Below are positions 1,359 through 8,354 of a DNA stretch of 9,150 nt, piece by piece. Source of the DNA: a virus (taxonomy: Duplodnaviria; Heunggongvirae; Uroviricota; Caudoviricetes); IMG/VR virus record IMGVR_UViG_2698536574_000022; one strand, 5' to 3'. Both the position numbers and the translations under genes were made by a program. Below the pieces are notes generated by a model. That model ran no database searches, was not told where the DNA came from, and saw only the letters and a list, made by a program, of their open reading frames with translations. Numbering within the stretch: position 1 is the first letter of the stretch; each line of letters begins with the position of its first letter.

Positions 1359-1514
1359 TTACTCCTCAGGTTCGTAAGCTGTGAAGACAGCGACCTCCGT
1401 CTGGCCGGTTCGGATTCGTACCTCGCAGAGGTCTTTCCTCGTTACCAGTGCCGTCACTATGACGGTTAAACAGATGACGATCAGGGCGATTAACATCGCC
1501 TTTTGCTGCTTCAT
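1359..1514 (-). CDS. hokD: Hok/Gef family type I toxin (small membrane-depolarising peptide)
   Basis: Translation from ATG 1514-1512: MKQQKAMLIALIVICLTVIVTALVTRKDLCEVRIRTGQTEVAVFTAYEPEE (51 aa), with single TM helix and the conserved RKxLCE...E/A..AYE signature of Hok/Gef. It matches my recollection of E. coli HokD/RelF, which is not verified by search. SD AAGGAG 9 nt upstream. The track ORF (1359..1571) adds 19 in-frame N-terminal codons that I consider unlikely to be translated. Confidence 0.85.
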   Translation of the reverse strand: MKQQKAMLIALIVICLTVIVTALVTRKDLCEVRIRTGQTEVAVFTAYEPEE

Positions 1515-1725
1515 AGCCTGCTTCTCCTTGCCTTTCGGCACGTAAGAGGCTAACCTAGATTTGCCGTTCATAGATTGAGCCTCAGATTAATGTTAAGCGT
1601 CTTGCAGGACGCGTAATGTTAACTGGGGCTTTTCTCTATCTGCCTTTGGTGTTCATGCCTGAGACAGATAGCCTCAAGCACCCGCAGCCATTCTACTTAA
1701 CTCCCGTTACCTCGCCAATATGAAA

Positions 1726-1815
1726 TCAGTCAGAAAGGCGATCCATAAGAACAACAGCAAGGCAATAAATTGCCATTACAGCAGCAATAGCCAGCGCACA
1801 TTTGAGAACCAGCAC
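1726..1815 (-). CDS. Candidate small hydrophobic peptide (29 aa), possible type I toxin-like or small membrane protein
   Basis: Not in the ORF track (below size cutoff). Consensus SD AGGAGG (rc of 1821-1826), 5-nt spacer, GTG at 1815-1813, TGA at 1726-1728. Translation (M)LVLKCALAIAAVMAIYCLAVVLMDRLSD: one hydrophobic helix with a charged C-terminal tail. No homolog recalled. Confidence 0.3.
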   Translation of the reverse strand: MLVLKCALAIAAVMAIYCLAVVLMDRLSD

Positions 1816-2138
1816 CACAACCTCCTGTATTGGACGTACACCAGTCCTGATAAATATGAGGCTGTCTCGTCAGTGATTCAATACAACTATTGGGTATAGT
1901 TTCTGTGATTTTGTTCTGTAGAAATGGAACATAATAACCTGTCACCACCAGCACTTCTTTAAATACGCCAAGTCCGACGCAAGCTAACCTTCTAGCCCGC
2001 TTTGAGCGAAGAACGGACTGAGTAATTCAGGCCGTTAGCGACACTATGACATCATTAGCAACCAACTAGGAGTTGGTAATAGATGAGTTAATTAATTGAT
2101 TAAAAACCGACGATTTTACTAGATTACGGGAAGAAGAA

Positions 2139-2156
2139 AGGCCGCTGGTACGGCCT
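2139..2156 (-). terminator. Weak intrinsic terminator after the small coiled-coil gene
   Basis: Hairpin AGGCCG-CTGGTA-CGGCCT at 2139-2156; minus-strand downstream sequence is TTCTTCTTCCC (pyrimidine-rich, imperfect U-tract). Sits 26 nt past the stop of the 2182..2379 ORF. Confidence 0.4.
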
Positions 2157-2181
2157 CCCAGAGACTAGTCTATTGTTATGC

Positions 2182-2379
2182 TTAGAAACGCTTTTCTATC
2201 TCTTTTTCTCTTTCGTTTATTGCATCGTCAATGATTTTTTTTGCTGAATTAATTTGTGGTGTTTTTTCTGGTAATACATCTTCAAGATCTTTGGCAATTT
2301 TCTTTAATTTATCGATTTCTTTAGTTAAATCAGTTACAGATTTATCCGCTATTGACTTTGTCATTTTTCCATATTCCAT
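2182..2379 (-). CDS. Hypothetical small K/E-rich coiled-coil protein (65 aa)
   Basis: Track ORF MEYGKMTKSIADKSVTDLTKEIDKLKKIAKDLEDVLPEKTPQINSAKKIIDDAINEREKEIEKRF. AT-rich codon usage like the rest of the insert, followed by its own hairpin. No strong SD; alternative start at ATG 2364. Confidence 0.45.
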   Translation of the reverse strand: MEYGKMTKSIADKSVTDLTKEIDKLKKIAKDLEDVLPEKTPQINSAKKIIDDAINEREKEIEKRF

Positions 2380-2552
2380 TCAATTTATTTATCAATCAGT
2401 TACCCGTAAACCTTATCATGGATTCCAATTATCGACAGCTGGGATTTTTACTTTCTTGATCTGCCCCAGGCGAATGACATATCCCCATTAACCAATGTCC
2501 GCTCCTAGCACTTAGTAGACATTAATAGATTGTAAGCGTTCCCGTCATGTAG

Positions 2553-2933
2553 CGGTCACCGATTGGTGATGAATTGAAGCGGATCATTGATGAAAGTCGC
2601 AATAACGTGGCCAGCCCATTTATCGTTCACCAGATCCCGGAACGGCAGGTTAAACGCAGCAAAGAAGTTTCTCATCCCACTCAAGTTGCACCAGACTATT
2701 TGAGTCGGTCGTTTTCAGCTACGCGTGACAAGCTGGGTTTATATGACAAACGGCCGATGGATGAAAGGCCAACCTTTCACGAAATTCGCGCCTTAGCAGC
2801 ACATCTTTTTGATCAGCAGGGCATCGATCCACAAGGACGAATGGCACACAGCGATGCGAAATCAACTAAAATCTACACGCAAAACCATATCGACTGGGTT
2901 GTAGTTCCACATGGAGAAATTAAAGCCAGCTAG
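2553..2933 (+). pseudogene. Lambda-type tyrosine integrase, 3' fragment only (C-terminal ~125 codons)
   Basis: Track ORF 2574..2933 starts at TTG; the frame is open back to a TAG at 2550-2552. C-terminus PTFHEIRALAAHLFDQQGIDPQGRMAHSDAKSTKIYTQNHIDWVVVPHGEIKAS aligns with the lambda Int C-terminus as I recall it (PTFHELRSLSARLYEKQ...LLGHKSDTMASQY...DKIEIK), including the catalytic His and Tyr positions. All three frames upstream of 2550 hit stops within about 20 codons, so the N-terminal ~230 codons of a full integrase are absent. Confidence 0.65.
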
Positions 2934-3031
2934 CACCAAGTAAGGCATAGAATTTTATTAACCAAGGAGCATATGACCAGTAATTAATTCTTACCGGAAA
3001 GTTAGCCCTGCTAAAATTAATATTAACAAAT

Positions 3032-3063
3032 AAAAAAATAGGGGCAAATATTTATATTTGCCC
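3032..3063 (-). terminator. Rho-independent terminator of the nucleotidyltransferase-effector operon
   Basis: 9-bp stem GGGCAAATA (3042-3050) / TATTTGCCC (3055-3063), loop TTTA; on the minus strand it is followed by CTATTTTTTTATTTG (rc of 3027-3041). Located 12 nt past the effector stop codon. Confidence 0.65.
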
Positions 3064-3074
3064 TCGCAACATAT

Positions 3075-3656
3075 TTATCTTCTTTTCAGTTCCTTGGGAA
3101 GAAAAGCATCTATTTCTTCTTCAGAAAATGTTAAATCTTCTTTGTTTTTTAATGCGTCCTGTGCTTTTTTATAAGCTTCAAATGTTGTACTAGGAGAGCC
3201 TGAATACACTGAATGTAAACTCTCGAGTAACGAATCCCGCTCTGACTGCAATTGCTCGATTGGTTTTTCACCCATTGCTAAGTCTGTAAGCAATGATAAA
3301 TACTTTTCTCGGATTAACCAGATCTCATTTGCAGCCTGCTTATGTTTTTGCGCCAACTCACCAAGGTCATAATCTTTGGTATAAGCGTTAAGAATGAGAA
3401 GCAGTGTTGAAACAACAATCCCAACCCCCGTGCCTACTTCACCCGCGCCGAAAAAAGTTGCTAGAAAGCCTCCAGTAGTTAAGGCGGAGAGAATTATTTG
3501 CCAAAACTTTATAGAAGATAGTCGAGATAGGAGAATGTCTGAGCATTTTTCATGCGTCTTATGTGAGTAAACGACCCGACCATAACACTCTCTGATCTGC
3601 CCTTCTAAAACCCTTCTAGATTCAGGTGTATCCTTAGTCTGGAAATGTTGATCCAT
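3075..3656 (-). CDS. Two-transmembrane effector, SLATT-like (predicted pore-forming or membrane-disrupting partner of the nucleotidyltransferase)
   Basis: Track ORF 3075..3713; preferred start ATG 3656-3654 with GGGAGA about 4 nt upstream, giving MDQHFQTKDTPESRRVLEGQIRECYGRVVYSHKTHEKCSDILLSRLSSIKFWQIILSALTTGGFLATFFGAGEVGTGVGIVVSTLLLILNAYTKDYD... (193 aa). Layout is an N-terminal helix, two hydrophobic segments (WQIILSALTTGGFLATFF and GVGIVVSTLLLILNAY) and a roughly 95-aa helical charged C-terminal region. Overlaps the upstream gene by 23 nt (80 nt if ATG 3713 is used). Confidence 0.7.
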   Translation of the reverse strand: MDQHFQTKDTPESRRVLEGQIRECYGRVVYSHKTHEKCSDILLSRLSSIKFWQIILSALTTGGFLATFFGAGEVGTGVGIVVSTLLLILNAYTKDYDLGELAQKHKQAANEIWLIREKYLSLLTDLAMGEKPIEQLQSERDSLLESLHSVYSGSPSTTFEAYKKAQDALKNKEDLTFSEEEIDAFLPKELKRR

Positions 3657-4515
3657 AAATCTCCCGCCATTTTTGCTTAGCCGACCATTCGCGTTTTGGG
3701 GTCGCCATTTCATGCTCTATAGCTTCGAGTGAAATGTTATAGCACCGTTTTGCTTTATATTGGAAAAGCCCTTTACCATAGACATACTGACCACTTCCTG
3801 GCGCTTTCCAATACTCCTTACTCGTATCTTGATCAGCCATCCATTTGAAGAAATCACGACTCATGAAATCGTAGTAAAGATACGACTTATCTCTATGCGC
3901 CCAATTTTCAATGAATTGATACGCAAGCGTATCAATGAGTAAACCACTTATAGGTACATCCCATTTACGCTTCCAAGCTCTTGCCATTCTACAAAGTTGC
4001 ACCAAATTGTTATTGGTAATGTTATTTCTTAACCTCATTGCAGAAATTTCTGGCTTTGGATTTGTAATCCTCCAACGGCCACCACCGTTCGCATCAGGAA
4101 ATGTGTAACTATCACTAACATTGAGGAAAGCTGGAACGACTTCAAATGTAATTCCATCATTGAACGGTACAAGGATCACTTGACCGTCACCTCTAATACT
4201 AGTGGTAGCATAGGTTTTTTCAATAGATCTCTTAACCGCTTGAAGCAATGCTGACTGCCCATTTCCTAAGTAGCTATTGTATTTTTGATACTCGGAATAT
4301 GGTAGCTGAAAAATCATATCCAGATCGCTCAAGCCTTGCGTAGCTGTGTTCCGACCATATGATCCAACGTAGAGACTATGAGAAGTATCAGAACTGCTAT
4401 CCCAAAAATCCGTATTTAAACGCTTCGTTATATTCCTATATCTAGTTGAAATTGTTCCACCATCTTTTACAGTAAGATTGGAGCAAAATCCGCAAAACCA
4501 CTCAGCTAAACCCAT
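3634..4515 (-). CDS. CD-NTase / SMODS-family nucleotidyltransferase (cGAS/DncV-like; predicted cyclic nucleotide second-messenger synthase)
   Basis: Track ORF 3634..4521 starts at TTG; preferred start ATG 4515-4513 with AAGGA about 8 nt upstream. Translation MGLAEWFCGFCSNLTVKDGGTISTRYRNITKRL...YVGSYGRNTATQGLSDLDMIF...GQVILVPFNDGITFEVVPAF...RWRITNP... shows the Pol-beta-type GS-x11-DxD motif plus a downstream acidic residue in an h-h-F-D-G-hh-EVVP context. About 293 aa, typical of minimal CD-NTases. Assignment is by motif recognition, not a search. Confidence 0.8.
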   Translation of the reverse strand: MGLAEWFCGFCSNLTVKDGGTISTRYRNITKRLNTDFWDSSSDTSHSLYVGSYGRNTATQGLSDLDMIFQLPYSEYQKYNSYLGNGQSALLQAVKRSIEKTYATTSIRGDGQVILVPFNDGITFEVVPAFLNVSDSYTFPDANGGGRWRITNPKPEISAMRLRNNITNNNLVQLCRMARAWKRKWDVPISGLLIDTLAYQFIENWAHRDKSYLYYDFMSRDFFKWMADQDTSKEYWKAPGSGQYVYGKGLFQYKAKRCYNISLEAIEHEMATPKREWSAKQKWREIYGSTFPD

Positions 4516-4661
4516 GCTCAATTCCTTTTCTAAAATCTAATGAAAAATTCAAGGGCGCATGTTCCATGCATCATTGATAACTTTTTTCAGTCAGCTAGAG
4601 CAACATAATTGATACTAACTAGCTGTTTCTTCAAGTGAGTAACCTACTTTAGCATCAAGGT

Positions 4662-4690
4662 ATTATACCTACCAAGCATGGGGAGAAACC
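4662..4690 (-). promoter_or_regulatory. Candidate promoter for the NTase-effector operon
   Basis: Perfect -10 TATAAT on the minus strand (rc of 4662-4667), about 150 nt upstream of the NTase ATG; the -35 is poor (GGTTTC/TGGTTT at 17-18 nt spacing). Position and hexamer only. Confidence 0.3.
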
Positions 4691-4829
4691 ACCACTTAAG
4701 CCATTGAAGTATATAGAGCAGATTTTGTTGAAAAAGCACTGTTTGTCTATACATATGAATATGTGCTTTTAACCAGCAATAGCGCGGCTCTCAGCGTTTT
4801 ACAAGCAGTGTCATGGGGTGTCGGGGATC

Positions 4830-4857
4830 GGAAGTTCAAATCCTCTCGTGCGACCCA
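4830..4857 (+). other. tRNA 3'-end-like fragment (T-arm, acceptor 3' strand, CCA); possible integration-site (att) remnant
   Basis: GGAAG-TTCAAAT-CCTCT (4830-4846; T-loop consensus, stem with one A-C mismatch), then 7-nt CGTGCGA, discriminator C and CCA (4855-4857). No complementary 5' acceptor strand within 80 nt upstream, so this is not a complete tRNA. Confidence 0.35.
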
Positions 4858-4870
4858 AAAGATTATATAA

Positions 4871-4896
4871 ACCAGCCTGTTATTGCTGGTTTTTTA
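4871..4896 (+). terminator. Intrinsic terminator-like hairpin following the tRNA-like fragment
   Basis: ACCAGC-CTGTTATT-GCTGGT (4871-4890) followed by TTTTTTA on the + strand. An inverted copy of the stem sequence (AACCAGCAATA, 4771-4781) lies about 100 bp upstream. Confidence 0.45.
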
Positions 4897-5049
4897 TGCC
4901 TACCTTCCTGGTAGGGAAGCTATGGGGAATTACTGGGGAATCCCCCCCCTTTACCTGCTCCCATTAAACTAACATAGCACGATGTAAGCAACTTCCGCTT
5001 CTGGCACAAAGCGGACAACCACGCTAGCTCTACCCTGTGCCACAAAATG

Positions 5050-5508
5050 TCAATTTACATCTGAACTAATGCACTTTAATCTCGTCACTTCAAAAAAATA
5101 CCGAACATCCCCCTGATAAAACGACAATATCCGCTGCATAACTTCGCTTTTACGACACTCAGTACAAATTATATTATGACGCCTGTCGTAACGACGTATT
5201 TCTCCATCAGGTAATGACCAGATAAGGTCCGGATCAACCGCAGATGGTTTCTTCAGCTTTGCCCTTGAGAGCTTTTTACGGGCATTTTGCCAGTCCTTAC
5301 GCGCCTGTTCAGACGGGAATAACCCGTAACCAGAGTTGTATACATCGCCACTGGCAACCAGCTCTCTGGCCAGAACGCTCATCAGATATCTTGTTGCCCC
5401 AGTTTTAGCTTCCTGTTGTCGTAACGTCTCGCGCCCACTCTGGCGTACGAGTTCAAGAACCTGCCCTTTAATTTTTTCCCGCTCTTCTTGTGTAAAAACT
5501 TTTGCCAC
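5050..5508 (-). CDS. Hypothetical prophage protein (152 aa), distal gene of the replication-side operon
   Basis: Track ORF with GTG start at 5508-5506 preceded by consensus AGGAGG (rc of 5513-5518). Translation (M)AKVFTQEEREKIKGQVLELVRQSGRETLRQQ... No Walker motif (not a DnaC/P-type helicase loader) and no domain I can assign. Confidence 0.6.
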   Translation of the reverse strand: MAKVFTQEEREKIKGQVLELVRQSGRETLRQQEAKTGATRYLMSVLARELVASGDVYNSGYGLFPSEQARKDWQNARKKLSRAKLKKPSAVDPDLIWSLPDGEIRRYDRRHNIICTECRKSEVMQRILSFYQGDVRYFFEVTRLKCISSDVN

Positions 5509-5548
5509 AAGCCCTCCTGAAAATTACCTCATGACCAGAAATACACAC

Positions 5549-6136
5549 TTACCCCCTGAAGCCCGGTGGAATTTCGGTATCCGGTTCAGAAATATGATTC
5601 ACACAACGCTGGTTGTTCGTACCGCTTACCGGGAGCAACCAGGGGTTTTCAAAATTCCGGTCCGGTCCAAAAAACGTCGTCGCTCGCTGAACAAATTCCG
5701 TTCCCGTTTTCCCGGTAGCCGCCAGGTATCTTGCGTAACGCCTCACACCATCCAGCATGGCCTCTGGTGGCACCCCCTCGCGTAATCTGGCCTTCCAGGC
5801 ACTGAAAGCGGATTTCTTCGGGTTTGCCCCAGCACGCAACGGGTATTCCCGCCAGACCTGTTCGAACACATCCGGATAATCTACTCGCCCCACAGGCTGC
5901 CCGGTGTTTTCCGGGACTACCCGATCGGCTTCCCGCTGAATGGCGGAATCGGCTTCAGGCTGCTGCAGTTGGTGTGATTGCTCCGGCCTTGCGGTCATCA
6001 CCTGCTGCACAGCGCCCGAATCGGCTTTCAGCGCATACGCTGAATCGGCTTCCGGTGTCGTGCCTGCTGGCTGACCAGGATTGACGGTCTGAACATCCCC
6101 TGCCTGGTTCGTGGCGTTTTTTACGCCATGGACCAT
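5549..6136 (-). CDS. Replication-associated protein: low-complexity linker plus conserved C-terminal domain
   Basis: Track ORF 5549..6223 begins at TTG; first ATG is 6136-6134 (MVHGVKNATNQ...). Pro/Gln/Ala/Thr-rich linker, then DYPDVFEQVWREYPLRAGANPKKSAFSAWKARLREGVPPEAMLDGVRRYARYLAATGKTGTEFVQRATTFFGPDRNFENPWLLP, which I recognise as a phage replication-protein type of domain (memory, unverified). Its 5' end overlaps the upstream ORF in another frame, so it may be the C-terminal part of a frameshifted single initiator gene. Confidence 0.55.
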   Translation of the reverse strand: MVHGVKNATNQAGDVQTVNPGQPAGTTPEADSAYALKADSGAVQQVMTARPEQSHQLQQPEADSAIQREADRVVPENTGQPVGRVDYPDVFEQVWREYPLRAGANPKKSAFSAWKARLREGVPPEAMLDGVRRYARYLAATGKTGTEFVQRATTFFGPDRNFENPWLLPVSGTNNQRCVNHISEPDTEIPPGFRG

Positions 6137-6609
6137 AGTGTTTTGATCTTCTTGATCTGTATCTTTATCTGTATCTTTATCTGTCGTGACATGTGCGTGA
6201 CATTTCGTGACGCGCCGTGACAATCGCCATTTTGTTCCCGCTTTCTTTCCCTCTCTCGCTGCGCCCTCTTGCGCTCTGCAGGAGATTTTGCGGTTTGCGA
6301 AATATTGCCGTTGTCCTCTTTAAGCACCTGGCGTTTTTCCCATCCAGTGATTAAATCACCATCAAGTACCCGCCCCTGCATCGTCTGCAAAATTGAATCA
6401 ATTACCTCTTCTGTCACGTCGAGCGCACTTGCCAAATCTTCTGTCGTGACATCAATGTGACCTCGCGTGACATTTCGTGACGCGCTCACCAGGAGGTGGA
6501 TATACACTGCCATCACTGTTGCAATTGGCTGCCCTGACACCCTGGCAATTGTTCGCCACTTAGGGTCATTTGGCATGTCATGCCATAATCTGAGCCAAGC
6601 GTTAGCCAT
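6121..6609 (-). CDS. Replication initiator / replisome-organizer N-terminal domain protein (lambda O-like role); contains the iteron arrays
   Basis: Track ORF 6121..6615 starts at GTG; preferred ATG 6609-6607 with GAGGTG 3-4 nt upstream. N-terminus MANAWLRLWHDMPNDPKWRTIARVSGQPIATVMAVYIHLLVSAS resembles phage replisome-organizer N-terminal domains. The gene body contains two arrays of four phased GTGAC repeats, as the lambda O gene contains ori. Confidence 0.65.
   Translation of the reverse strand: MANAWLRLWHDMPNDPKWRTIARVSGQPIATVMAVYIHLLVSASRNVTRGHIDVTTEDLASALDVTEEVIDSILQTMQGRVLDGDLITGWEKRQVLKEDNGNISQTAKSPAERKRAQRERERKREQNGDCHGASRNVTHMSRQIKIQIKIQIKKIKTLWSMA
6155..6184. repeat. Tandem 12-bp repeat (ATCTGTATCTTT x 2.5) in an AT-rich stretch with two GATC sites
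   Basis: Direct reading: ATCTGTATCTTT at 6155-6166 and 6167-6178, then partial ATCTGT; GATC at 6145-6148 and 6154-6157. Encodes IKIQIKIQIK in one minus frame and TDKDTDKDTD in the overlapping frame. Confidence 0.8.
6186..6221. repeat. Iteron-like array A: four GTGAC motifs at 10-11 bp phasing
   Basis: GTGAC at 6186, 6197, 6207 and 6217, immediately adjacent to the AT-rich tandem repeat. The block CTGTCGTGACAT...GCGTGACATTTCGTGACGCGC (6181-6215) is duplicated at 6441-6485. Confidence 0.6.
6446..6481. repeat. Iteron-like array B: four GTGAC motifs at 10-11 bp phasing
   Basis: GTGAC at 6446, 6457, 6467 and 6477, plus an inverted copy (GTCAC) at 6414-6418. A near-duplicate of array A lying about 260 bp away inside the same gene. 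Confidence 0.6.
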
Positions 6610-6680
6610 ACTCACCTCTTCTGATACCGAATCTTTTTACTCACGAGTTGCCGGAAGCGATTCGATATGGCTATTGTCAG

Positions 6681-7106
6681 TCAATGTACTGCCACAGCAT
6701 TTCCTGCCGGGCCACCACGGTTCATCTGATTGAAACCGGCGATTGCCACTGCGACAAAATCATCAGCGTCTCTCACCAGTCGCTCCCGCGTCTCCACCAG
6801 CTCCCGAAAATAAGCTGAACTGTGGCTGCGCATTCTGGCCACCAGCAAAGGTGGCCTTGCCTTTTCGATCGCTGGTAACAACGCCTGAATTTTTTCAACT
6901 GCATCAGGGGTATCTTTCTCTATCCAGCGGAAAATTTTCTGGGTATTGCGAGCCAGGGCTTCCGGATGGCTGTCGTCGTACAGTTCAGGAAACGTCATAC
7001 CCAACTCAAAATAAGCCTGGGTTATTCCAGCTGCCGGAACTTTTTCGCCATCAGGACGCGCCCAGGCATTCATCGCCATGCGGATGTGTTCATGCTTGAT
7101 TTTCAT
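6681..7106 (-). CDS. YdaT/CII-like prophage regulator (141 aa)
   Basis: Track ORF 6681..7178; preferred start ATG 7106-7104 (MKIKHEHIRMAMNAWARPDGEK...) preceded by GGGGGG 5 nt upstream. It sits immediately after the Cro-like gene, in the cII position. Family name is from memory. Confidence 0.55.
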   Translation of the reverse strand: MKIKHEHIRMAMNAWARPDGEKVPAAGITQAYFELGMTFPELYDDSHPEALARNTQKIFRWIEKDTPDAVEKIQALLPAIEKARPPLLVARMRSHSSAYFRELVETRERLVRDADDFVAVAIAGFNQMNRGGPAGNAVAVH

Positions 7107-7332
7107 GAATCCCCCCTTGGTTAGAAGGCGGATTATGATCAGAACCGGGAATGACAACCGTCGGTATGTGTAACTCATATTTGAGCGCCCCGGCAGTGAC
7201 TGCCTGAATTAGCAACGCCCATTTCCACGGAACCTCTTCCCCCCACATGCTGACTGTGGTTTTTGACGTTCCTAGAGCTGCGGCTGTTTTAACAACTCCG
7301 CCAAAATAGCCTAATACTTCTGATTTTTTCAT
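7090..7332 (-). CDS. Cro-like HTH regulator (YdaS-like)
   Basis: Track ORF 7090..7380 starts at TTG; preferred ATG 7332-7330 with GGAG 7 nt upstream. MKKSEVLGYFGGVVKTAAALGTSKTTVSMWGEEVPWKWALLIQAVTAGALKY... has an HTH and is divergent from the CI-like gene across an operator-containing intergenic region. Confidence 0.7.
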   Translation of the reverse strand: MKKSEVLGYFGGVVKTAAALGTSKTTVSMWGEEVPWKWALLIQAVTAGALKYELHIPTVVIPGSDHNPPSNQGGIHENQA

Positions 7333-7360
7333 GAGTCGCTCCATAAAACTGAACGCCAAA

Positions 7361-7424
7361 AGTTTAATAATCAAAACCAAAGAAAGTCAAGAAACAAAAC
7401 CATCTGTGTTTTAAAATCAAAACA
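7361..7424. promoter_or_regulatory. oR-like divergent control region: operator palindromes and back-to-back promoters
   Basis: Palindrome TGTTTT-AAAATC-AAAACA at 7407-7424 overlapping the CI-like ATG; degenerate copy AGTTTA-ATAATC-AAAACC at 7361-7378. Minus strand: -35 TTGACT (rc of 7385-7390), 18-nt spacer, -10 TAAACT (rc of 7361-7366) aimed at the Cro-like gene. Plus strand: -10 TAAAAT at 7412-7417 ends 6 nt before the CI-like ATG with no SD, consistent with a leaderless transcript. Confidence 0.55.
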
Positions 7425-8062
7425 TGAGCAAGCAAACAATATCTGAACGCATAACCCAACGTATGCATGCGCTAAACCTGAAAGGCAAAGACCTTGTCAA
7501 TGCCACTGGCGCATCAAAAGGCTCCGTAAGTCAATGGATGAACGGTGGAGGAGCGCCGTCCTCGCGTTACATAAGTTCACTGGCAAAAATATTGAAAGTA
7601 AACGAAAATTGGCTTCTTAATGGAGGAGAGTTAAATACAGGTGATTCGCTTGATCTATCTTTACCGCCGATAAAAACGGTTCCGCTACTATCACTTCAGC
7701 AGGCAGCAAGCTGGAGTGATTATATGAAAAATTCCTCAATAACCTCTTGTGTGCAGCTTGTCGGAGAAATCCCGGCCAATACCTTTGCAGTTGTTCTAGA
7801 GAGTGACAGTATGTCAACATCTGGTGGGGGAGTTTCCATCCCAAATGGTTCAACAGTTTTTGTTGATCCCAATCGAACCGTACAACCAGGAAATATTGTC
7901 CTTGCCTTACCCAAAGGGACCACAACACCTGTCATTCGTAAACTGGAGATAGAAGGGCCGGATATTCTTTTAGTCCCCACGAATCCTCGCTACCCTTCAA
8001 TTATGCTGGATGATCTATCTTGCATATTGGGCGTATGCTTTAAAATTCAACAAGATATTTAA
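7424..8062 (+). CDS. CI-like phage repressor: N-terminal XRE-type HTH plus C-terminal S24 (LexA-like) autopeptidase domain
   Basis: Track ORF, 212 aa. HTH region LKGKDLVNATGASKGSVSQWMNGGGAPSS...NENWLLNGG; C-terminal domain with Ser in AVVLESDSMSTSGGG and Lys in VIRKLEIEG, with the conserved spacing of LexA/cI Ser-Lys dyad proteins. Confidence 0.9.
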   Translation: MSKQTISERITQRMHALNLKGKDLVNATGASKGSVSQWMNGGGAPSSRYISSLAKILKVNENWLLNGGELNTGDSLDLSLPPIKTVPLLSLQQAASWSDYMKNSSITSCVQLVGEIPANTFAVVLESDSMSTSGGGVSIPNGSTVFVDPNRTVQPGNIVLALPKGTTTPVIRKLEIEGPDILLVPTNPRYPSIMLDDLSCILGVCFKIQQDI

Positions 8063-8128
8063 CCGACCTCATCTATTTGATTAACTGTATGCCATCGTGG
8101 TGATGGCTTAACAGCTGCCTGCTTAAAA

Positions 8129-8175
8129 TGTTTTGATAAAAAAACATTGACCTGAAAAGTTCATTTTTCTAAACT
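8129..8175 (+). promoter_or_regulatory. oL/pL-like operator plus promoter for the rightward small-gene operon
   Basis: Palindrome TGTTTT-GATAAA-AAAACA at 8129-8146 (same consensus as the 7407-7424 site), abutting -35 TTGACC (8147-8152), 17-nt spacer, -10 TAAACT (8170-8175). The same -10 hexamer is used by the pR-like promoter. Confidence 0.5.
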
Positions 8176-8354
8176 TCATTCATTCCCTCTCCCCACCCCA
8201 CAGAATGCAGGGCAATACTTCGAGTTACCAGGCAGTGGTCAGGGGTTAAGTAGCCAGCCCGAGGCGTAAGAACATGACGGCAGGGTTCAACTTTAATAAC
8301 TATGCAGCAGGTTTTTGTTCCGCTACCCCGGCGTTAAGGGGAAATGAGGTCAGC

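Follow-up and report, generated by a model that had tools for sequence, protein, structure and literature searches.

A truncated integrase gene and an unused attachment site beside a CBASS operon as scars of its probable earlier place in phages integrating at proL

The integrase-like open reading frame described here is very probably the dead 3' third of the integrase gene (int) of a phage that integrated into the tRNA gene proL, carried as part of a ~3-kb block which moved by ordinary recombination into a variable slot of a Qin-type prophage. It lies in what we call the window, that is, the entire stretch of 9,150 nucleotides of virus record IMGVR_UViG_2698536574_000022 that was analysed. The setting of the window is a Qin-type lambdoid prophage of E. 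coli, and several complete E. coli chromosomes are 100% identical to the region. Beside the integrase remnant (hereafter the stub) the block contains two CBASS genes and an ORF of 65 aa, its GC content being 30-44% vs ~50% in the flanks (Table 1). By itself the stub is minor; its value is that of a provenance marker for the CBASS operon.

Table 1. Features of the window (strand '.' where neither strand is assigned)
Feature	Position	Strand	Remarks
DUF968-type late-regulatory genes	left of hokD/sok		
hokD/sok	1359-1683	-	
Whole block	~2003-4950 (~3 kb)		65-aa ORF, stub, terminator, SLATT-SMODS, attP
Left junction	2003-2010	.	7-nt microhomology TGAGCGA, common to block-free prophage allele and context-B copy
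65-aa ORF	2182-2379	-	RefSeq version of 60 aa, WP_000167380
Residual integrase codons H-V-A-V (four; ~residues 265-268)	2546-2557	+	other frame, 5' of 1-nt insertion at 2557/2558
Integrase stub ORF	2553-2933	+	126 codons after TAG at 2550
Integrase stub	2559-2933	+	residues 269-392 and native stop; HEIR (H-x-x-R), AHS (His), IYT (Tyr)
Intrinsic terminator of SLATT/SMODS operon	3032-3063 (hairpin 3063-3042 and T-run)	-	GGGCAAATAT..ATATTTGCCC; in int-SLATT spacer
SLATT_4 two-transmembrane effector	3075-3713 (RefSeq start 3656)	-	Pfam SLATT_4 6e-74; PADLOC 2TM effector 1.4e-84; RefSeq
SMODS oligonucleotide cyclase (CBASS cyclase)	3634-4521	-	Pfam SMODS 2e-50; PADLOC cyclase 4.7e-144
attP relic, P arm (int-proximal)	4678-4811	+	79% identical to LD91-1 int-side junction, 74% Enterobacter, 70% Eeyore/Flotzy, ~54% host
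attP core	4812-4857	+	3' 46 nt of tRNA-Pro(GGG) gene proL; alignment to K-12 proL
attP relic, P' arm	4858-4945	+	phage copy of tRNA terminator, then GGGGAA repeats 11 nt apart
Right junction	4950-5016	.	~65-nt intergenic element 3' of DUF977 gene
DUF977 gene	5050-5508	-	
cro-like and YdaT-family genes, then replication-region gene	right part of window, between repressor and DUF977 gene		
cI-like S24/HTH repressor	7424-8062	+	

A sequence-only reading of the window had taken the ORF for the last ~125 codons of a lambda-family tyrosine recombinase, with the His and Tyr active-site region and the native stop retained. This is borne out: 124 codons of a 392-aa integrase are present, together with ~4 more upstream, and HEIR, AHS, IYT and the terminal GEIKAS with its stop codon are all in place. 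When aligned with the 392-aa integrase of E. coli LD91-1, the stub matches residues 269-392 without a gap (111 of 124 residues identical, 90% at the amino acid level, E=9e-83; 86% nucleotide identity). The closest full-length gene found, belonging to the provirus UViG_2773857942_000002 of IMG/VR (hereafter L119), agrees with the stub at 115 of 125 positions (92%), with both products ending in GEIKAS, and the integrases of phages Eeyore and Flotzy are 70% identical over the stub at the amino acid level. Homology to the catalytic domain thus documents descent from a lambda-type tyrosine recombinase. The Pfam profile Phage_integrase (PF00589) matches the stub at profile positions 109-168 of 172 with 21 bits, below the gathering score; since the profile gives only 19.7 bits for a full-length relative, low scores are characteristic of the family. 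The first start codon in the ORF is a TTG at 2574, from which 119 aa would be encoded.

Mapping where integrase homology ends, which the earlier reading had proposed as a check, places its start in nucleotide alignments at ~2546, that is, ~12 nt 5' of the stub frame and behind the 1-nt insertion at 2557/2558, with the truncation breakpoint just 5' of 2546. Upstream of 2546 no integrase homology was detected, and the stops reported there for all frames are confirmed for three frames. Residues 1-268 are absent from the whole window in tblastn searches with three full-length integrases (E<1), and the gene can therefore not be rebuilt by correcting one frameshift, an outcome that would have spoken against a truncation. 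PGAP/RefSeq labels 2534-2933 'recombinase; frameshifted; incomplete; missing N-terminus', and positions 2534-2545 within this annotated pseudogene exhibit no convincing nucleotide homology to integrase. Truncated relative to its full-length homologues in a manner that no single indel can repair, the stub is an ordinary integrase pseudogene, already annotated as such in public records.

Full-length relatives carry the Pfam domain Arm-DNA-bind_1 and SAM-like N-terminal domains, and one of them aligns over residues 3-326 with the lambda Int structures 5J0N, 1Z1G and 1P7D (E=6e-11; 45 bits). According to this alignment the first catalytic Arg (~R216) is clearly located 5' of the breakpoint, and the catalytic Lys (~K256), being weakly aligned to lambda Int, is tentatively placed there as well. 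The stub hence possesses neither the complete catalytic set R-K-H-R-H/W-Y nor the N-terminal arm-binding and core-binding domains, and because the first Arg, probably the Lys, and both DNA-binding domains are missing, it cannot act as an integrase. A promoter-like site was not found on the + strand upstream of it, and the stub probably does nothing today. Copies of the stub in E. coli are mutually at least 99% identical, and its 124 codons are free of stops. The changes along its branch are few (21 synonymous and 8 non-synonymous, compared with 14 and 3 on the sister branch leading to L119); mostly synonymous changes and an open frame agree with a gene that was under constraint until a recent truncation, and are compatible with a selected fragment as well.

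The full-length version and its att site, which the earlier reading had suggested to look for in related genomes, were located together with SLATT-SMODS in two places. L119 is 92.2% identical to window 2558-4855 at the nucleotide level and runs from a full-length 392-aa int through the same spacer and terminator, SLATT/SMODS (95% aa) and the P arm to a perfect core, where the contig terminates exactly (provirus end). A prophage of Enterobacter sp. RIT637, 78.7% identical to window 2559-4552, has att with a perfect core next to host genes, followed by SMODS, SLATT and a full-length 392-aa int, and beyond int an xis-like ORF, an exonuclease, DUF2303 and a cI-like gene; among the 80 SMODS loci inspected it is the only one with an adjacent integrase of the stub's family. 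In both relatives the homology of the int-SLATT spacer is unbroken and the terminator is conserved. The convergence of the stub and the NTase-effector operon across a terminator, noted earlier from the letters of the window, is thus confirmed, the terminator being that of the minus-strand SLATT/SMODS operon itself. Elsewhere the interval between int and attP is occupied differently: it is empty in phages Eeyore and Flotzy, where int abuts attP, and holds a 289-aa gene in E. coli LD91-1 and a 366-aa gene in Klebsiella. The presence of the CBASS operon in this interval in L119 and RIT637, and of other cargo or none elsewhere, identifies the operon as a moron of the int/attP slot, and it is to this cargo slot of proL-integrating phages that it is native.

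The proL-integrating relatives (L119, RIT637, LD91-1, Eeyore and Flotzy) thus share with the window the integrase family (70-92% amino acid identity over the stub), the att core and the slot, and the L119 and RIT637 prophages in addition have SLATT-SMODS and the terminator in that slot. They differ in that their int is full length and their att site is either recombined with the host (prophages) or an active attP (free phages), whereas the window copy is truncated, frameshifted, mutated in the core, and located inside another prophage. In lambda the 3' end of int likewise points toward attP, with accessory genes adjoining, and the full-length relatives possess a lambda-type arm-binding N-terminal domain. 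However, they resemble lambda Int only weakly in sequence (45 bits) and target the 3' half of tRNA-Pro(GGG) in place of the lambda attB, and the dead window copy keeps only residues ~265-392.

A nucleotide search of a phage collection with the whole block returned only weak partial matches, which led to Eeyore and Flotzy and hence to attP. In these two phages, ~220 nt directly 3' of the int stop match window 4678-4895; within this segment the tRNA-Pro half was found solely through alignment to K-12 proL, and the core, a 46-nt tRNA 3' block of the kind that lies at attP beside int, spans the gene from the anticodon loop to CCA. At its far end the prophage of LD91-1 is bordered by an intact tRNA-Pro adjoining yejM, and at its int end by the P arm, the core and yejO. 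Taken together, the match to Eeyore and Flotzy, the proL alignment and the ends of the LD91-1 prophage identify the segment as the att site of a proL-integrating phage family. It lies 1.7 kb from the stub on the far side of the CBASS operon and bears no RefSeq annotation. A search of the block for complete tRNA genes with ARAGORN gave none, and Rfam reported only sok as an RNA family, as expected for half a gene.

The sequences on both sides of this core are of phage type. GGGGAA repeats occur in the P' arm at +112 and +123 in the window, at +103, +114 and +125 in Eeyore and Flotzy, and at +114 in the far junction of LD91-1, and are absent from host flanks, while the distal P' arm is 58-61% identical to phages vs 41% to host DNA. 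With phage-type arms on both sides of the core, the window therefore holds a whole attP in its unrecombined state, and since this attP with both arms intact lies inside the block, it never recombined at the window site. Eeyore, Flotzy, LD91-1, L119 and RIT637 match the 46 nt of proL perfectly. In the window the core has two G>A changes that are common to all E. coli copies, and furthermore an A>C change and a 1-nt deletion that arose in the window's lineage (GTGCCGACCA > GTGCGACCCA); among the copies, the 3' end of the core decays stepwise from GTGCCGACCAAAAAG via GTGCCGACCCAAAAG to GTGCGACCCAAAAG. Judged from sequence, these mutations suggest that the attP may have lost its competence for recombination.

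The limits of the insert were derived from comparison with related prophages. Homology to the hok flank across E. coli stops at ~2009-2021, and homology to ordinary Qin/Rac-type prophages is lost at ~2009-2021 on the left and regained at ~4948-4994 on the right. A block-free prophage with the same backbone (E. coli FDAARGOS_1296; 2742-4721) matches the window up to 2009 and carries two unrelated hypothetical genes (333 and 320 aa) in the slot, which confirms the position between hokD and the DUF977 gene as a variable cargo hotspot. From the limits of homology and these alternative genes it follows that the stub lies within a ~3-kb insert. On the right, the ~65-nt intergenic element is found in two of the contexts described below (A and B) and in block-free prophages, and partly in the flank of the Z-region moron of P2-EC31 (AJ512677); 2244 of 5426 E. 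coli genomes match at least part of the 110-nt region 4940-5049 around it, their matches differing in the left end. Different cargo blocks join at the element (4950-5016), which is hence a candidate recombination joint for the exchange of morons. Direct or inverted repeats above chance were not found at the block ends.

The block is carried by 47 of the 5426 complete E. coli genomes, with the flanks of the window (context A; hokD/sok and the DUF977 gene) in 12 of the 47. In context B (E. coli WCHEC005237), window 2003-5012 recurs at 99.5% identity, with the identical truncation, beside tail-fibre genes in a different lambdoid prophage, the match starting at 2003, and in context C, a viral contig, a third right junction is located at ~4931. 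Since the same truncated block is found in at least three contexts, the integrase was already dead when it reached the position of the window. Always associated with the block is the 65-aa ORF, which encodes a coiled-coil-like product rich in lysine and glutamate and lies in a stretch of 27-36% GC that takes the place of the 5' two-thirds of int; it matched no phage record, is lacking from the 80 SMODS loci, and gave only chance-level matches to Pfam, PADLOC and NCBIfam models. The neighbour of the block in context B (1797-7202 of that locus) is a separate integrase-bearing island encoding an HsdM-like methyltransferase, an AAA ATPase of the ORC/CDC6 family and a hypothetical protein; it may be a further defence island in tandem.

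The contexts, the junctions and the absence of flanking repeats indicate transfer by general or illegitimate recombination and not insertion mediated by an integrase. We propose that the ancestor would have been a temperate phage integrating into proL which carried the CBASS operon as a moron between the int stop and attP. In one lineage, unrelated AT-rich DNA containing the 65-aa ORF would have taken the place of the first ~264 int codons, with the 1-nt insertion presumably arising after this replacement. The resulting block, consisting of the 65-aa ORF, the int stub, CBASS and the whole attP, may then have been carried passively from prophage to prophage by general or illegitimate recombination, and in the window it would have entered the variable slot flanked by hokD/sok and the DUF977 gene, joined on the left at the 7-nt microhomology and on the right at the ~65-nt element. 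The earlier proposal that a recombinase remnant next to a defence operon is a footprint of how the cargo arrived accordingly holds in one respect, that is, shared ancestry, because L119 and RIT637 keep int together with SLATT-SMODS and att. It does not hold for delivery to the present location, considering that the attP is unused, flanking repeats are lacking, the block is not at the proL attB, and it occurs in at least three contexts.

Relatives of the stub that are likewise incomplete were also encountered. A stub in Klebsiella quasipneumoniae (NFWG01000024; 7970-8360 of our extract, aligned with window 2541-2933) exhibits 79% nucleotide and 87% amino acid identity and has different cargo and unrelated upstream DNA, yet it begins at the same nucleotide as the window stub; ~7 nt of the adjoining non-integrase DNA (YCCCGT|YATGT) are common to both junctions, and the Klebsiella copy has a lesion of its own, a 1-nt deletion that creates an in-frame TAG. 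A third stub (L098) has its breakpoint ~18 nt further 3', and this part of the gene is a possible hotspot of breakpoints. Database proteins of 119 aa had appeared as candidate conserved stubs, but in two of them (P0008 and P0009) a full-length gene turned out to have been broken up by 1-nt indels, one of these in an A8 tract, and of the '119-aa' cases examined none but the Klebsiella stub and L098 is genuinely truncated. The A8 tract is located ~30 nt 5' of the PIGEEL codons in full-length genes (~7965-7972 of locus L002; L119), and an A7 variant (1865-2015 of locus L096) splits the gene into ORFs of 218 and 119 aa, so that the '119-aa integrases' in databases include homopolymer frameshifts or assembly errors. 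Apart from one chance match, all that emerged when metagenome and viral collections were scanned for the junction pattern were copies of this E. coli block, with no diverged examples among them.

Alternative accounts of how the block came to its place have to be weighed against this proposal. A small element consisting of int and CBASS might have integrated site-specifically at the present location, with the integrase decaying afterwards; an integrase remnant beside foreign cargo of lower GC content is what one would then see, and defence islands accompanied by an integrase only are known in E. coli (PMC10121019). Such an event, however, would have consumed the cognate attP, which instead lies inside the block with both phage arms, and should have left direct repeats or a split core at the block flanks, where neither is seen; moreover, the empty site in FDAARGOS_1296 is devoid of proL-like sequence, and the same block with the same truncation resides in other contexts. 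We consider this account largely refuted and its residual probability slight. It is, on the other hand, possible, if clearly short of probable, that the proposal needs to be modified such that the block is the relic of a tandem lysogen or of a swap of integration modules, having arisen at the tail-fibre end seen in context B and having been copied to the hokD/DUF977 slot later. The order in context B (tail fibres, ~65-nt element, attP, CBASS, stub) is mirrored by the vegetative order of Eeyore (tail fibres, accessory genes, attP, int), and the 3' end of the core is undamaged in context-B copies. Yet the core is also undamaged in two context-A copies (L106 and L110) and in context C, an intact parent phage was not found for context B, and the ~65-nt joint element, occurring as it does in both contexts, leaves the direction of transfer ambiguous.

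Two further readings would assign the stub or its truncation a purpose. According to one, the 119-aa ORF starting with TTG at 2574 is expressed and maintained, for example in order to block incoming related integrases or to bind att. The frame is indeed open over 119-124 codons, substitutions are chiefly synonymous, and the diverged Klebsiella stub, which seems to share the breakpoint, likewise has these 119 codons open. Divergence at a time when the genes were intact accounts for the synonymous bias, however, and each of the two stubs has its own disabling lesion directly 5' of the TTG codon; translation would have to start at this TTG, with no promoter-like site found upstream, the first catalytic Arg and both DNA-binding domains are gone, and genomes carrying the stub hold the family in one place only, that is, without a second, cognate integrase copy. 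SMODS loci keep SLATT in 74 of 80 cases, while an integrase of the stub's family is nearby in a single one and there at full length. A functional fragment is thus highly unlikely. Very unlikely, in our view, is also that the truncation was non-accidental, with int stub, cargo and attP constituting a recurrent integrase-less cassette formed by a site-specific event or by selection. If true, a helper phage integrase might act in trans to maintain or mobilise the cassette, or the cassette might exchange cargo with incoming phages via its two homology arms, and it would then be more than random debris. The Klebsiella stub, at 79% nucleotide identity and with the same apparent breakpoint, does count against our proposal, in that simple independent decay does not predict it, although the shared breakpoint may reflect coincidence combined with ascertainment bias.

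Movement of the block by ordinary recombination into a prophage slot can be compared with exchange at known phage hotspots. The P22/SfV gtr genes are located between int and attP, and both there and at the Z/fun and tin/old hotspots of P2, variable low-GC cargo with its own terminator lies between conserved flanks, as it does in the window. The cargo of the window is unlike the morons of those hotspots in that it brought pieces of its old hotspot, namely the 3' end of int and the whole attP, into the hotspot of an unrelated prophage. Defence systems located in hotspots of P2 and P4 have been described (PMC9122126).

The prophage type and the chromosomal neighbourhood of the window (hokD/sok, DUF968, Q) correspond to those of the cryptic prophage Qin of K-12 in its hokD-to-dicC segment, and the rspB/ynfA side seen in strain PSS-08-2 matches the K-12 Qin neighbourhood as well. 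K-12 Qin instead has relBE-ydfV-flxA-ydfW-ydfX in this segment. The gene ydfW (formerly intK) was considered as a counterpart of the stub and rejected, because BLAST gave no match between window 1529-8316 and the K-12 segment in which ydfW lies.

The neighbour of the stub, rather than the feature under study itself, is a predicted type I CBASS, recognised from its genes: a SMODS cyclase and a SLATT two-transmembrane effector match the respective PADLOC models (5e-144 and 1e-84), and Cap2/Cap3-like genes are lacking, while the NCBIfam equivalog models for CBASS cyclases remain below their cut-off (117 bits vs 200). The unit has the hallmarks of a moron, namely a terminator of its own, deviating GC content and a variable position between conserved phage genes; this assignment rests on the terminator, the GC content and the alternative cargo that other prophages hold at both slots (int/attP and hokD/DUF977). 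It is the CBASS operon that would constitute the selectable part of the block. Proteins 59-86% identical to the SMODS cyclase at the amino acid level are encoded in Chloroflexota, Planctomycetota, Poribacteria, Nitrospirota, Cyanobacteria, Bacteroidales and others (loci L010-L089). A protein scan of representative genomes provided the 80 SMODS loci mentioned above, and the unusual conservation of SMODS across very distant phyla together with SLATT being adjacent in 74 of the 80 implies a very wide and recent horizontal spread of the CBASS pair. For the block itself, stub and attP provide a worked example of defence cargo hopping between prophage hotspots while retaining the scars of its previous address, and call for caution: an integrase fragment next to a defence operon is no proof of delivery by integration.

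Further variation was observed in and around the prophage. When compared with strains 2013C-4991 and FDAARGOS_1296, the replication-region gene (356 aa; 5549-6615, minus strand) has a 10-bp deletion of GTCGTGACTC at ~6183, which frameshifts the gene into two ORFs (5549-6223 and 6121-6615), and the copy of the prophage in the window is thus probably defective in replication. In PSS-08-2 (6055-7781 of its locus), the stub borders on an IS3 element at window ~2714 and has lost its 3' part, the missing DNA extending from ~2714 to the prophage's own int end on the rspB side and including the CBASS operon. Strain 2013C-4991 (10270-11381 of its locus) has an IS421 between the genes on the DUF968 side and hokD, an element that the window does not have.
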